From a virus, in IMG/VR virus record IMGVR_UViG_3300048997_000130, positions 96,001 to 160,000 of that record: a stretch of 64,000 bases of DNA; one strand, 5' to 3'. Shown here one piece after another: positions 31,699-63,703 of this stretch. Under the pieces are notes generated by a model, which worked only from the letters and a program-made list of their open reading frames with translations, was not told the origin of the DNA and made no database searches. A program made the position numbers and the translations under genes. Numbering within the stretch: position 1 is the stretch's first letter; each line of letters begins with the position of its first letter.

Positions 31699-32340
31699 AT
31701 GACCTTCGTAGATTCGGTCTTCAAGTCCGGGCATGGCGCCAAGTTTTTACAGTCCGTTCTGGACCATCCTGAAATAGCTTCGGACATTGAAGCTTTCCCG
31801 CACCTTTTGCAACAAGCCAAAATTTTGGACATCCACTTCGTTCCATCGTCAATGGGAAAAGAAGACTGGAGGCCGAGCTTTTCCATTCAAGTCAAAGACC
31901 GCCAGTTCATTCAACAGGGTTTAAGCCTTCCATTTTTCTCCGTTTGTCCGGGTTCCGGCAACCTTGTTCACATGCTTTGTTTGGAACATGGGCGCTCCCT
32001 CCAAAAATTAAGCTCGGGTTCCGAATCACTCAAACATGCTGGCTCATCGGTCCGAAAGTCCGCGGTCGTTTCAGGTCCGGACCTTCCCACCATTTATCAA
32101 TCCGTTGATCGCTTCGTCACCCACAATTGCCCGCAAGTTGAAGAAACTCGTCTTCGTCTTCACAACGAAGTTTTCGGCCAGCTGCATCCCTGGCAGTTTG
32201 AACAGCGTCGCATTTCGGCTCTCCGAGCCGCCGCCCTTGAGCAGTTTTTTGAAATTCTTTCCAATTTCGAGGAGCTTGGCACGCAACATTTTCGCGATCT
32301 TCTCGACCAGTTTCAAGTCCATTCCGTCATGTCCTCATAA
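31699..32340 (+). CDS. family A paralogue with C-terminal tag
   Basis: ends LDQFQVHSVMSS. Confidence 0.85.
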   Translation: MTFVDSVFKSGHGAKFLQSVLDHPEIASDIEAFPHLLQQAKILDIHFVPSSMGKEDWRPSFSIQVKDRQFIQQGLSLPFFSVCPGSGNLVHMLCLEHGRSLQKLSSGSESLKHAGSSVRKSAVVSGPDLPTIYQSVDRFVTHNCPQVEETRLRLHNEVFGQLHPWQFEQRRISALRAAALEQFFEILSNFEELGTQHFRDLLDQFQVHSVMSS

Positions 32341-42862: not shown

Positions 42863-42870
42863 AAAATTTG

Positions 42871-42942
42871 TCCACCATGCTGGACTTGAACCAGCCCGCC
42901 AACCTTATAAGAGTCGGCAGCTCAACCCGAGCGTTATGGTGG
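42871..42942 (-). tRNA. tRNA-Ile(UAU), short D-loop, no encoded CCA
   Basis: acceptor CCACCAT/ATGGTGG, D-stem GCTC/GAGC, anticodon loop CT-TAT-AA, T-arm GCTGG-TTCAAGT-CCAGC. Confidence 0.75.
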
Positions 42943-49188: not shown

Positions 49189-49274
49189 GCCCTGGTGGTG
49201 GAATGGTATACACTCCGCGCTTAAAACGCGGCGCCTTAGCCGGATTGTGGGTTCGAGTCCCACCCAGGGTACCA
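49189..49274 (+). tRNA. tRNA-Leu(UAA)
   Basis: GCCCTGG/CCAGGGT acceptor, CCGCG-CT-TAA-AA-CGCGG anticodon arm, long variable arm, GTGGG-TTCGAGT-CCCAC, ACCA end. Confidence 0.95.
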
Positions 49275-49421: not shown

Positions 49422-49691
49422 ATGATATTTTTGAATTTTGGATATTTATTTGATACTGTGACAACGTCAAATAAATTATCGATCAATCCAACTGTTCATC
49501 AATCAGGACATACTGTCCTTGATGAGCGTAATGCAAATTGGTTTAAGCGACTCCCTGTCCACAAGAAAGTGGACTATTTTATCAAAAATGGGATGGGAAT
49601 TCGAGCTATCGCTAAAGAACTGCATCTGCCTAAGAAGACAGTTCGAGCTATTCTGCATAGTAACGTTCTGAAGGATGTCATGCAATCGTGA
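49422..49691 (+). CDS. HTH protein with C-terminal tag
   Basis: NGMGIRAIAKELHLPKKTVRAIL; ends VLKDVMQS. Confidence 0.75.
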   Translation: MIFLNFGYLFDTVTTSNKLSINPTVHQSGHTVLDERNANWFKRLPVHKKVDYFIKNGMGIRAIAKELHLPKKTVRAILHSNVLKDVMQS

Positions 49692-49811: not shown

Positions 49812-50015
49812 ATGGCAGCGGTCATGAACTGGCAAGAATCTAAATCTTGGTGGTCATTGTCGAACGACGATAAAAATCGACTTCGCTCTCGTATTCAAGA
49901 ACTTCGCCAAGAAGGTTTCATGGTTCGTTCAATCGCTAAATGGCTTGGAATCACTCGTTTAGTTGTTCGAGATTGTTTGCATGAAATTTTGACATCAGAA
50001 ATCATGGATTCTTAG
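49812..50015 (+). CDS. HTH protein with C-terminal tag
   Basis: EGFMVRSIAKWLGITRLVVRDCL; ends LTSEIMDS. Confidence 0.8.
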   Translation: MAAVMNWQESKSWWSLSNDDKNRLRSRIQELRQEGFMVRSIAKWLGITRLVVRDCLHEILTSEIMDS

Positions 50016-58120: not shown

Positions 58121-58534
58121 ATGTTTGAATCTAATATTCGGCCGCATGTTGAGAAAGCTGTCCGTTGTTTACTTGATAGATTTGATTCCAATCATTTGGA
58201 TTATGATAAAATAAAATTATTGCGAATTCACAATGAATCATGGGTGACTGTTTCCATCAAAGCCGAAATCCATCCTATTTATAAAGTAGCTTTTAGACTA
58301 TATGGTCACTTTTGGAGACCCAATAGGACGATAGAGACTTCGATATTCCATTATCCAGTATTAGATAATCATTCAATGGAGACGTTCATTGAACAAATAA
58401 TTGACGCGATTTCAGATAGAATCCAAACGCATTTATTAGAATTTATTCAAGCTTGTTCCACGGTTGGTGTTGAAAAACAATATCTTAACCAATATTTATT
58501 GGATCATATTGCTCAAGAAATAATGGAGTCATGA
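58121..58534 (+). CDS. hypothetical protein with tag
   Basis: ends LDHIAQEIMES. Confidence 0.8.
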   Translation: MFESNIRPHVEKAVRCLLDRFDSNHLDYDKIKLLRIHNESWVTVSIKAEIHPIYKVAFRLYGHFWRPNRTIETSIFHYPVLDNHSMETFIEQIIDAISDRIQTHLLEFIQACSTVGVEKQYLNQYLLDHIAQEIMES

Positions 58535-58794
58535 AGGTTCAATTCGAAAACCTCCGATATTTTCTGAAGTGGTATTGGGGGCTAGATTTGCGTCGTGCAG
58601 ATTCCGAATCTGAAACTTCCAGATTCACGGGAATTTATAAAACGGGTTTTATAGTAAGCGGTCCTCGTCCTGGATTTAAATGGAGCAAAGATCGAAGATA
58701 TCGATCTCTTTTAGAAATTGCTAGAATATTTGAATATGATAAATATCGTAGTGATTCGTTGGAACGTTTGGCTGCAGGAGTCATGAATACTTGA
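58531..58794 (+). CDS. hypothetical protein with tag
   Basis: ends LERLAAGVMNT. Confidence 0.75.
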   Translation: MKVQFENLRYFLKWYWGLDLRRADSESETSRFTGIYKTGFIVSGPRPGFKWSKDRRYRSLLEIARIFEYDKYRSDSLERLAAGVMNT

Positions 58795-58842: not shown

Positions 58843-60087
58843 ATGGACGTACAAAGCCGACATCGACAAGAAGACGGGACCTGGAAAATTCCGGACCATT
58901 CGTTGCCAGAGCTCATGCAGCGAGTCGAGAAGCTCAATAAGAGGACCAAGAAGACTAGCGGGAACGGACTTTCACTCGAGAAAGTCGGAGAATGCACGGA
59001 AGAGATTCAAGACGAAGAGAAGGCATTTCCTGACGTCAGGAAATATGTTTTTATCAAAATTTCCGGCGAAATCCCTGTCATTAATGGTCATGCGTTTATT
59101 GCTCGCATTGAACATCATGTTACCGGCAATATCATATCGAAATCCCCACGATTTTTTGATTTCCCGTTGGCCGAGGAATTTCGAACCTGCACTGCAAATT
59201 GCGAACACTGTAATACGCTTCGGCAACGTAAAGACACCTTTATTTTGCGAACCGAAGACGGGACTTTGAAGAAAATCGGCCGGAACTGTCTTGCTGATTT
59301 TCTTCGTGGTTCGAACGTCCAAGACGTGCTCCAGTTGTGGTCTTTGATAGATTCTATTGAGAAGCTTCTGGACGCAGCAGAATCGGATTTGGAAGGCAGT
59401 TCTAGTGGTGGAGGACGGTCTTACGTTCGTTTGTCGAATTATTTGGCTTGTACGGCTTCTGCTGTTCGGAACTTTGGATGGGTGAGTCGCGCAAAAGCTG
59501 AAGAATTTCAGAAACAAGCTACTGCTACGGTGGCAGATTGGCTATGCGGCAAAGCTCCTAAATCGCCTCGAGAATACGAAGAATGGAAGAGTTGCCAACC
59601 CACGGCAGTAGATTTGGCAACGGCCAAATCGGTCATGGATTGGGTTGAGACTTTTTCCGGAAAATCAGATTTGAGTGAATATTTCTGGAATATGAAAGCC
59701 GCTTTTGATTTGGGTTATGTTAGCGCTCGCAATTCTGGACTTATTGCGAGCGCAGTCATTTCCTATCTTAAAGAAATGGAGCTTTTGCAAAAGAAACAAG
59801 CTCGTGCTGACGTTCCGGATGGCGGCCATTTTGGCATTCCGGAGAAGCGTTATGATTTTACTAATTTGACTGTGCTCACTGTTCGTAATTATGAGAACGA
59901 TTACGGCACTGTTACCATGCTTATCATGTCAGATGCTGAAAATCATCAGTTTAAATGGAACGCCAGCGGTTCCAAAGATTTCAAAGCCGGCCAGACGGTA
60001 TCAGGTAAAGGCACTGTTAAGAAGCATGATATGTACGAAGGTCGCCATGTAACGATTTTGACTCGTTGTAATTTGACTATCTCCTAA
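58843..60087 (+). CDS. phage-type protein with Zn-binding motif and probable C-terminal OB fold
   Basis: CEHC..R..IGRNCLADF; C-terminal beta-rich GTVKKHDMYEG..T.LTRC. Confidence 0.6.
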   Translation: MDVQSRHRQEDGTWKIPDHSLPELMQRVEKLNKRTKKTSGNGLSLEKVGECTEEIQDEEKAFPDVRKYVFIKISGEIPVINGHAFIARIEHHVTGNIISKSPRFFDFPLAEEFRTCTANCEHCNTLRQRKDTFILRTEDGTLKKIGRNCLADFLRGSNVQDVLQLWSLIDSIEKLLDAAESDLEGSSSGGGRSYVRLSNYLACTASAVRNFGWVSRAKAEEFQKQATATVADWLCGKAPKSPREYEEWKSCQPTAVDLATAKSVMDWVETFSGKSDLSEYFWNMKAAFDLGYVSARNSGLIASAVISYLKEMELLQKKQARADVPDGGHFGIPEKRYDFTNLTVLTVRNYENDYGTVTMLIMSDAENHQFKWNASGSKDFKAGQTVSGKGTVKKHDMYEGRHVTILTRCNLTIS

Positions 60088-60146
60088 ATAATATAATTTC
60101 TTTAGAACTTGATACTGATTTTTTATTATAAAATGGCAGATATAAA

Positions 60147-61163
60147 ATGAAGCTCAATGGGATCCATGCATTCGAATTTAATTATTTGAAAGATGAATAC
60201 CCATTATCACAAGAATGGAGGGATATTCAAGCCTTTGAACATTCTGTGACTGTATGTGATGTTAACATCGTGCTATTTGGAATGTCAGCCACACATAAAT
60301 CCGGAAAAGAAATATCTGCTAGTTCCATTCATGATTTCGAACATATTGCTAGTGGTGGACTAGCTGCAGCATATTTTGAACTGTTGGAAAGGACGGCTCT
60401 TATAGAAGCTTCTTCCGTTCCCCATTTCCCGATTATTAATTATCTTGGCGAAGAATTCGGGCAAATCGATTATACGAGAGTGTTTCCCGGATCACCAGAT
60501 CCACGCTGGAAATATTCATTATCGAATGGCATATCGGCCAATATTGGAAGAGAAGCTGCATGTAAATCAGCCAATTTTGAATTAATTGAACGCGATTTAA
60601 TTTTGAGATCTTGGTATGATAATTTGAAATCTATTAAAGTTTCTAACTGGGTCGAGTTCCCAACATCTTTCAATGATAATTATGACATCCAATCTTATTC
60701 ATTTTCGAATTCTGATCAAGATTGTTCTGTTGTTGGTATATTCGGTTTCCCGAAAATCCATATTCCATTAATCTATGGATTTGGAGCTCGAGCTACTATT
60801 GATGAAGCTATTGCTGTGGCAAAGCGCGAATGCATTCAAAGACTTGGATTTTTGTGGGGCGAATCTATACCTTCGCAAGCTCCGACTTTAAAATGCACTG
60901 CAGAATTCCATCAAGCATTTTATTTATATCCGCCGCATCATATTAAACTTCGGAACTGGTTAGATAATGATCTTGGTCGGATGATGCATGTTCCTACCTG
61001 TAAAATCGAAAATCGACAATTCATCGATTTGACTCCTGATCATTTGAAGCACAAAATGTACGTTGTGAAAGCACTTCTAAAAAGTGAAATCCCTTTAACA
61101 TTTGGACTTCCAAGATCATGCAATCGGATTTATCCGGACAGAACAATTCATCCAATAGCGTAG
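60147..61163 (+). CDS. YcaO-family ATP-dependent amide-modifying enzyme
   Basis: AYFELLER, SNGISA..ELIERD, GFGA..AKRECIQR, C-terminal HPIA. Confidence 0.85.
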   Translation: MKLNGIHAFEFNYLKDEYPLSQEWRDIQAFEHSVTVCDVNIVLFGMSATHKSGKEISASSIHDFEHIASGGLAAAYFELLERTALIEASSVPHFPIINYLGEEFGQIDYTRVFPGSPDPRWKYSLSNGISANIGREAACKSANFELIERDLILRSWYDNLKSIKVSNWVEFPTSFNDNYDIQSYSFSNSDQDCSVVGIFGFPKIHIPLIYGFGARATIDEAIAVAKRECIQRLGFLWGESIPSQAPTLKCTAEFHQAFYLYPPHHIKLRNWLDNDLGRMMHVPTCKIENRQFIDLTPDHLKHKMYVVKALLKSEIPLTFGLPRSCNRIYPDRTIHPIA

Positions 61164-63208: not shown

Positions 63209-63703
63209 TTGGCTTCTCGAATTGAATCTTCGGTATTCACATCATGTAGATATGAATATTATTTTTATAGAAATATTATGAATTTGACTGGAAATTATGA
63301 AACTATAACAATTGATGATTCGTCTTGGTCTCTTCGATGTAGTTGGTATAAAGAATCTCATCATTGGTCGGTATGTATACGGATTTGTTTGAACAGTAAA
63401 CCTGTGGAAGAACTTGTATATTATGTGATTCCTGGTGGGAATTGGTCTGTGAGCGATTCAAGAATGGTTCCCAATAAACTAAATTCTATGCAAATTGCTA
63501 ATTTGATTGAGAAACGCTTGATTTCCAGTATGGCGCCATTGCCGCGCCCTATTGATATCGCCGAGTTCATGGATCGAGTACACAAACTCGCGCTGGTGGA
63601 AATGTTTCGGCAATTCGCAAAAGAATGGACAGGCGATATTGCAGTGGAAGATATTGCTTGTATTTGGGCCGAAGAACAATATCGCGGAGTTATGGAATCG
63701 TAG
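63209..63703 (+). CDS. hypothetical protein with tag
   Basis: ends WAEEQYRGVMES. Confidence 0.8.
   Translation: MASRIESSVFTSCRYEYYFYRNIMNLTGNYETITIDDSSWSLRCSWYKESHHWSVCIRICLNSKPVEELVYYVIPGGNWSVSDSRMVPNKLNSMQIANLIEKRLISSMAPLPRPIDIAEFMDRVHKLALVEMFRQFAKEWTGDIAVEDIACIWAEEQYRGVMES

Follow-up and report, generated by a model that had tools for sequence, protein, structure and literature searches.

The stretch of DNA analysed here – the window, 64,000 nucleotides that correspond to bases 96001–160000 of a single linear contig of 196,676 bp, the IMG/VR virus record IMGVR_UViG_3300048997_000130 – carries a gene for a 338-residue YcaO-domain protein in the midst of phage genes. The protein belongs to a clade of short YcaOs whose cellular members sit in a conserved cassette beside sensor kinases. 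In the phage, it keeps the ATP-binding residues of the family and stands alone. The YcaO superfamily as such is well known; what is new is the uncharacterised clade, together with the unusual carrier and gene context of this member.

YcaO enzymes use ATP to modify the peptide backbone: after attack of a nucleophile on a backbone amide, an O-phosphorylated hemiorthoamide is formed, and the products are azolines, thioamides or amidines. They are familiar from pathways for peptide antibiotics, and in two cases they modify an essential protein of the cell, McrA or the ribosomal protein uL16.

We consider the chances about even that the phage protein is an active, singly captured takeover enzyme acting on the conserved, host-encoded substrate of its clade. 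An ancestor of this giant, uncultivated phage would have captured the YcaO gene alone, without the flanking genes for GNAT, haem-oxygenase-like and kinase proteins, and the captured gene would then have taken on phage composition. Its product would use ATP and Mg to O-phosphorylate an amide of the peptide backbone, so that a nucleophile can replace the amide oxygen. During infection, it would act on the conserved substrate that its cellular relatives use – a host protein or a peptide of the host cassette – and would thus serve as an auxiliary host-takeover gene, with no pathway of the phage's own for peptides made on the ribosome and modified after translation (RiPPs).

Identity, fold and active site

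The open reading frame (ORF) starts at the first ATG past an in-frame stop at 60132 and ends with TAG; alternative genetic codes, also considered, leave it unchanged. Its product matches the Pfam YcaO family (PF02624) with 33.1 bits over residues 119–262, above the gathering threshold of 25.7, and the only match in a six-frame scan of the whole contig is the same gene (31.4 bits). Among the NCBIfam models, searched to an E-value of 0.1, none responded besides the SagD-type domain model TIGR03604, to which residues 117–236 score 40.7 bits against a cut-off of 219.25, placing the protein outside that family.

The predicted structure certainly has the YcaO fold, since its VIA Z values against YcaO structures span 15.6–22.1, compared with at most 10 for unrelated entries. 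The highest value is that for McbD (22.1, with 286 residues aligned), followed by the Methanopyrus kandleri YcaO (19.9), LynD (19.5), MusD (18.2; 7U58, a structure whose title refers to ATP-dependent peptidase activity) and Escherichia coli YcaO (15.6). The best structural matches also include the YcaO of Methanocaldococcus jannaschii, which, like M. kandleri, we take to be an organism without TfuA, while TruD and LynD head the profile-to-sequence matches. As these values nearly tie across the YcaO classes, the fold gives no pointer to the chemistry. The one stretch of the core whose modelling had low confidence is a small insertion, residues 61–70.

Residues were mapped by hhalign onto the E. 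coli reference sequence (from NC_000913.3), and conservation was read from an alignment of the phage protein with 224 relatives (225 members of the clade in all), in which a column counted as conserved if at least 90% of the relatives agreed. The original prediction, made from sequence alone, had described all three ATP-binding Glu motifs as intact, and so they are: E78/E81, E145/E148/R149 and E228 align with E. coli YcaO and are 99–100% conserved (table). The equivalents of E. coli E75, E78, E199, E202, R203 and E290 are thus all present, the first motif, AYFELLER, matching G-E75-Y-F-E78-R79. One of these residues is mutated in E202A, a variant used as the dead control of the E. coli enzyme (PMC13063428).

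The Pro-containing C-terminus described at the same time is also genuine, with the correction that it reads IHPIA, with one highly conserved Pro, and not the canonical PxPxP. In the VIA comparisons, McbD and LynD can both be aligned as far as residue 338, the end of the protein. Of the 45 conserved columns, 41 are kept in the phage protein, among them every acidic ATP/Mg residue and H335–P336. Conservation reaches beyond the ATP motifs: W156, F235–L236, E239, H255, W271–L272 and L317–F319–G320 are retained as well.

The clade of short YcaOs

One coherent family of YcaOs of about 340 residues emerged both when 5.8 billion proteins were searched and when HMMER was run exhaustively on 1.84 billion cluster representatives, 503 of which were found at E ≤ 1e-3. 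Homology is full-length: the alignments cover at least 90% of the length at 33–41% identity (E = 1e-40 to 1e-66), with a best identity to the phage protein of 40–41%. The 150 best relatives (E to 3e-38), recovered with any length allowed, are all 262–383 residues long, and none is fused to another domain. Besides its length, the phage protein shares with the clade the signatures FLWGE and W-x-Y-S-x-SNG and the IHPIA end; its isoelectric point (pI) is 6.16, the clade median being 5.64.

In the GTDB reference genomes, all 52 loci lie in the Myxococcota (Polyangiaceae, Labilithrix and others) or the Bdellovibrionota (Oligoflexia, Bacteriovoracaceae and Bdellovibrionia). Examples include MAG proteins of Polyangiaceae, Oligoflexus and Bacteriovoracaceae, and the clade is one of predatory and gliding bacteria.

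Neither tblastn of the protein against INPHARED nor a pattern scan of IMG/VR with the clade alignment found a further phage copy. E. coli YcaO, searched against INPHARED, retrieved only copies or fragments of host ycaO, 89–99% identical, in records whose hosts are E. coli and Shigella; most lay at record ends and one was a full-length copy. No bona fide phage-encoded YcaO was found in the GenBank phage collection, and a literature search combining YcaO with phage or virus found no account of one among the papers listed.

The gene belongs to the phage

That the genome is phage-like, as first proposed, is confirmed by the IMG/VR record, by PHROG matches on the contig to large terminase, portal and prohead protease, by the upstream neighbour of the YcaO gene, a phrog_2319 protein, and by flanking phage-specific paralogues. 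Other PHROG matches are to ribonucleotide reductase (RNR), clamp loader and helicases; six tRNAs are present, and CheckV estimates the contig to be 44% complete. Megablast of 58–63 kb against phages found no related phage, and an IMG/VR search with the phrog_2319 neighbour and a helicase found no close relative.

These features bear on whether the YcaO gene could be cellular DNA, brought in as a host flank, by chimeric assembly or by contamination. Every relative found is indeed cellular, and both the INPHARED and the IMG/VR searches came back without a viral homologue, as such an origin would predict. The gene itself, however, has a GC content of 37.8% (28.6% at third codon positions) and a codon-usage cosine of 0.955 with core phage genes, against 56–72% GC for the DNA of most cellular relatives. 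It is flanked by the phrog_2319 gene and by paralogues confined to this phage, with phage genes running on to both contig ends, and its closest cellular protein is only 41% identical. Because of this composition and the phage genes on both sides, contamination or a host flank is very unlikely, and we regard a cellular origin of this DNA as a nearly negligible possibility.

Partner genes: absent from the contig, present in cells

The original prediction noted that no TfuA, E1-like partner, dehydrogenase or evident precursor lies next to the gene, and this now holds across the contig (197 kb). Family scans found no TfuA (PF07812), ThiF/E1, nitroreductase, PqqD/RRE, radical SAM, PAPS reductase, ThiS (PF02597) or Haem_oxygenas_2 (PF14518); GNAT (PF00583) gave only a sub-threshold match, inside a Mom-like gene 110 kb away. 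There is no small ORF rich in Cys, Ser or Thr close to the YcaO gene. Hidden Markov models of the three types of upstream partner seen in cells found no counterpart in the contig translated in six frames, and phmmer, run on the contig with all ORFs that lie up to 6 kb from YcaO in the 52 cellular loci, gave YcaO as its only match. On the contig, therefore, YcaO is a stand-alone gene.

In cells, the picture is different. Gene tables of six contigs, together with a clustering of all ORFs in the 52 loci (L017–L068), show a recurrent order in which a GNAT-like gene and a haem-oxygenase-like gene precede the short YcaO and a sensor kinase follows (e.g. L018:2875-10166). The GNAT-like protein is present in 30 loci. 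The haem-oxygenase-like protein, of 220–260 residues, is found in 31; its gene overlaps or abuts the YcaO start, and its matches to Haem_oxygenas_2 (the 'iron-containing redox enzyme' family) stay below threshold. A kinase cluster is present in 37 of 51 loci, usually downstream of YcaO, and the kinase is often a giant of about 1,800 residues with the architecture Pkinase-AAA_16-GAF-HisKA-HATPase-REC; other loci have pairs of a HisKA protein and a response regulator. A B12-binding radical SAM gene occurs in eight loci; in five, the upstream partner is replaced by a PAPS-reductase-like gene, a hint of sulfur handling. Among the genes conserved around YcaO in these loci, there is no TfuA cluster. 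We found no published function for the clade or for the cassette.

None of the cassette genes accompanies the phage copy. The view of this YcaO as a stand-alone enzyme is therefore right for the phage contig and does not extend to its clade, which in cells is embedded in a cassette beside sensor kinases – a setting that points to a host-encoded substrate or pathway.

The same data speak to the possibility that the phage YcaO is part of a RiPP or toxin pathway of the phage, with its precursor and partners encoded in the other ~56% of the genome or by an unrecognised small ORF. Most characterised YcaOs do act on nearby precursor peptides, and the search for TfuA and ThiF beyond the locus, which found neither, covered the ~44% of the genome that the contig represents. 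RiPP genes are normally adjacent to one another, however, and both neighbours of the YcaO gene are phage genes unlike RiPP enzymes; nor is there an RRE, ThiF, TfuA, nitroreductase or radical SAM in the 197 kb. The cellular loci likewise contain no conserved small ORF on the plus strand that would make an evident precursor peptide, so the clade may need no adjacent precursor; small ORFs of 62–71 residues near three of these loci were considered as precursors and rejected as mutually unrelated. A phage-encoded RiPP pathway is therefore improbable in our estimation.

Relation to characterised YcaO systems

Among the archaeal YcaOs that thioamidate a glycine of McrA, those of M. kandleri (6CI7/6CIB) and M. 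jannaschii (6PE3/6PEU) are 14–17% identical to the phage protein, and their substrate is irrelevant for a phage of bacteria. The azoline cyclodehydratases – McbD of microcin B17 synthetase, LynD and TruD – include the top structural match, McbD, which aligns up to the C-terminus. They differ in that the phage contig has no E1-like/RRE partner, fused or separate, no dehydrogenase and no Cys/Ser/Thr-rich precursor, and in the absence of PxPxP from the phage protein. YcaO–TfuA thioamidation involves an adjacent TfuA and a ThiS-like carrier, neither of which is on the contig.

E. coli YcaO offers a functional parallel for an enzyme without partners. It thioamidates Met82 of uL16 directly, reading the tertiary structure of its substrate (PMC13063428). 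Like the phage protein, it has no partner and no adjacent precursor, and its E199/E202/R203 and E290 align with the phage residues. It is, however, a protein of about 586 residues with a C-terminal TPR-like domain and a pI near 4.4 (PMC13063428), quite unlike the shorter and less acidic phage enzyme.

The thiovarsolin pathway is the one published case we found in which a YcaO is paired with a haem-oxygenase-like protein; here, the YcaO VarY works with the TfuA protein VarT and the haem-oxygenase-like dehydrogenase VarO, and the products are N-acetylated (PMC6511847). Among published systems, this pathway comes nearest to the cellular cassette, and the N-acetylation echoes its GNAT, the likeness of VarO to the cassette protein being one of description. 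Thiovarsolin formation also needs TfuA and the repetitive precursor VarA, neither of which occurs in the cellular cassette; the phage has YcaO alone.

Proposed role of the phage enzyme

Backbone modification of a host or phage protein, the role originally suggested, would follow by analogy from the functions of the YcaO family. From the retained residues and the cellular gene context, we infer that the phage YcaO is probably catalytically active and that its substrate would be encoded by the host. The same host-supplied substrate as in cells is the most likely one, because the phage protein keeps clade-specific columns well outside the ATP site, whereas the genes around the cellular YcaOs were left behind. 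As for the product, a thioamide is slightly favoured over an azoline or an amidine, by analogy with those thioamide-forming YcaOs that act without partners on folded proteins, and given the occasional PAPS-reductase-like neighbour in cells.

Several observations weigh against this proposal. With the contig about 44% complete, phage partners or precursors may lie in the remaining part of the genome. Membership of the Myxococcota/Bdellovibrionota clade is established; in a maximum-likelihood tree, however, the phage YcaO occupies a long branch (1.22) outside every well-supported clade, so that no donor can be named. As to the host, the DNA at 44–64 kb showed no match when it was compared with five low-GC genomes in which the clade occurs. 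The protein also deviates from the clade consensus at four conserved positions (A60S, R74A, A130S and P162S), which ranks it 213th of 225 members, with more deviations than 94% of its relatives. R74, which aligns with E. coli S71, lies four residues ahead of the first Glu, and its replacement by Ala next to this motif may, judging from the alignment, have altered or abolished activity.

These deviations, R74A included, are also what one would expect of a protein that no longer acts as an enzyme: a decoy or binder that titrates the partners of the host cassette or the sensor kinase and thereby blocks signalling or defence, or else a passenger gene in decay. The tight linkage of the cellular clade to large Pkinase-AAA_16-GAF-HisKA proteins, or to HisKA and response-regulator pairs, would offer such a binder a target. 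Against this, every acidic ATP/Mg residue and the C-terminal H-P are kept, in a full-length ORF whose codon usage is like that of core phage genes, and a pure binder would have no need of such features. Among the PADLOC defence models, none matches YcaO, the haem-oxygenase-like protein or GNAT, and the kinase matches are to a generic Ser/Thr kinase domain only. A non-enzymatic role thus seems unlikely to us.

If the phage YcaO is the active, host-directed enzyme that we propose, then a phage equipped with nothing more than the amide-activating enzyme would either act with it, alone, on a target in the infected cell or plug it into a host pathway; in either case, protein-backbone chemistry would join the tools of phage takeover. 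The finding also draws attention to the conserved and apparently unstudied cassette of GNAT, haem-oxygenase-like protein and YcaO that Myxococcota and Bdellovibrionota carry next to a sensor kinase; the phage copy represents a natural minimal version of it.

Shared C-terminal tails

The YcaO gene lies within an array of phage ORFs that share a C-terminal motif. On the contig, 62 ORFs of at least 60 residues end in [VIT]-[MQ]-x-x-stop, and the variety of their codons and stop codons points to selection acting on the protein sequence. They are found at 31699–58794 and 63209–63703 of the window and also at 160–196 kb of the genome. The last 45–80 residues align across families as a conserved helical module, and in a model of modest confidence (predicted local distance difference test score, pLDDT, of 62) the V-M forms the end of a long terminal helix. 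A ten-member paralogue family of tail-bearing proteins, A4, has no homologue outside the phage genome in a profile search of the 5.8 billion proteins.

These tails raise the possibility that YcaO modifies proteins of the phage itself, namely the Met-containing [VIT]-M-x-x ends of more than 50 ORFs, with the tail or helix as a follower-type recognition element. There is precedent for such recognition in bottromycin biosynthesis, where stand-alone YcaOs read follower peptides. The apparent selection on the tails and the position of the gene inside the array, where tail-bearing ORFs end 1.35 kb upstream and start again 2 kb downstream, agree with this idea, and Met is also the residue that E. coli YcaO thioamidates (PMC13063428).

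Other features of the tails speak against it. Rather than being free tags, they close a conserved helical module, with V-M at the helix end in the model. Their last residue varies (S, E, G, M, K, Q, T, D or I), and there is no consistent nucleophile after the Met. The surface residues of the phage YcaO are those conserved by the cellular clade, whereas A4 is confined to this genome, and so the enzyme did not evolve for A4. Co-folding of YcaO with the 45-residue C-terminal module of a tail-bearing protein, run without controls, reached 0.01 against a mark of 0.32, a value that counts neither for nor against the idea.

The suggestion that the shared tails act as follower-type recognition sequences thus finds no support, the tails being the end of a helical module of phage-specific paralogues whose sole link to YcaO is proximity. 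Modification of phage proteins accordingly has, in our view, a distinctly small chance of being right. The specific claim that YcaO writes a backbone mark, such as a Met thioamide, on the [VIT]-M-x-x ends of more than 50 phage proteins is more doubtful still; were it true, it would amount to a virus-wide post-translational mark laid down by a single captured enzyme.

Two small tail-bearing members, at 49422–49691 and 49812–50015, resemble helix-turn-helix proteins. A related ending occurs in the first part of the window (1–32000), where several ORFs end in [VI]-Q-x-S (IQES, VQES or IQTS) in place of [VI]-M-x-x. This region has a GC content of about 50%, against 33–41% elsewhere on the contig, and consists of small ORFs arranged head to tail, mostly on the minus strand, none of which exceeds about 310 residues under any genetic code.

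Neighbouring genes and other observations

The features of the YcaO gene and its surroundings are collected in the table. The upstream neighbour shows no kinship to the upstream partners in the cellular loci. The putative promoter matches the consensus only, in a region that holds 28 such matches where 18 are expected.

Table. Coordinates, within the window, of the YcaO gene, its conserved motifs and its neighbours
Feature	Position	Strand	Remarks
Nearest upstream tail-bearing ORF (...GVMNT)	58531..58794	+	Shows that YcaO sits in phage-specific DNA
Upstream neighbour, 414 aa, full-length phrog_2319 (function unknown)	58843..60087	+	PHROG E = 2.5e-70, 5-396 of 399 positions
Weak sigma-70-like promoter match, TTTAGA-17-TATTAT	60101..60129	+	9/12 positions, 59-nt gap before YcaO
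YcaO-domain protein, short clade	60147..61163	+	338 aa
AYFELLER motif (E78, E81, R82), first ATP/Mg-binding Glu pair	60369..60392	+	99-100% conserved in 224 relatives
S126-N127-G128 motif	60522..60530	+	Aligned by hhalign with E. coli S180-N181-G182; 96-99% conserved
ELIERD motif (E145, E148, R149), second Glu pair	60579..60596	+	Aligned by hhalign with E. coli E199/E202/R203; 100% conserved
ECIQ motif (E228, Q231), third Glu	60828..60839	+	Aligned by hhalign with E. coli E290/Q293; 100% conserved
C-terminal H-P-I-A tail	61149..61160	+	H335, P336 98-99% conserved
Small downstream ORF, ≤106 aa	61118..61438	+	Overlaps YcaO 3' end; weak phrog_16964 match, E = 5.6e-4
475-aa protein, signal-peptide-like N-terminus, Cys-rich segment	61449..62876	+	Three metagenomic relatives only
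Nearest downstream tail-bearing ORF (...GVMES)	63209..63703	+	

The small downstream ORF, whose start is uncertain, shares 46 nt with the 3' end of the YcaO gene, read in a different frame, and bears the motif W-T-T-x-S-G-x-K-I-x-V-x-x-M-T-D-S-H-I-N-N. The 475-residue protein that follows has a C-terminal motif C-x-D-G-I-D-N-D-G-D...C, and its three relatives are all that the search of 5.8 billion proteins returned. The closest of these (55% identity; L070:1409-2821) comes from a phage-like contig of high GC, where it is flanked by a tail-fibre-like ORF on one side and a terminase-like ORF on the other. As that contig has no YcaO, the idea that this gene was acquired together with YcaO was rejected.

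Two of the six tRNA genes, tRNA-Ile(TAT) at 42870–42942 on the minus strand and tRNA-Leu(TAA) at 49189–49274 on the plus strand, lie inside the array of small genes, and the other four are near the contig end; all six fit a supplementation of A/T-ending codons.

Finally, the genes for portal, large terminase, helicase and the RNR large subunit, at genome coordinates 27.8–68.2 kb, are abnormally long, encoding 1,175–1,471 residues (L002:7791-12206, L002:13105-16707, L003:15750-19277 and L004:4112-8212). Terminase, helicase and RNR share matches to phrog_9666, and the portal has RNR-like matches instead, a pattern in the sequence that suggests insertions, intein-like or of another kind, in several of the phage's core genes.

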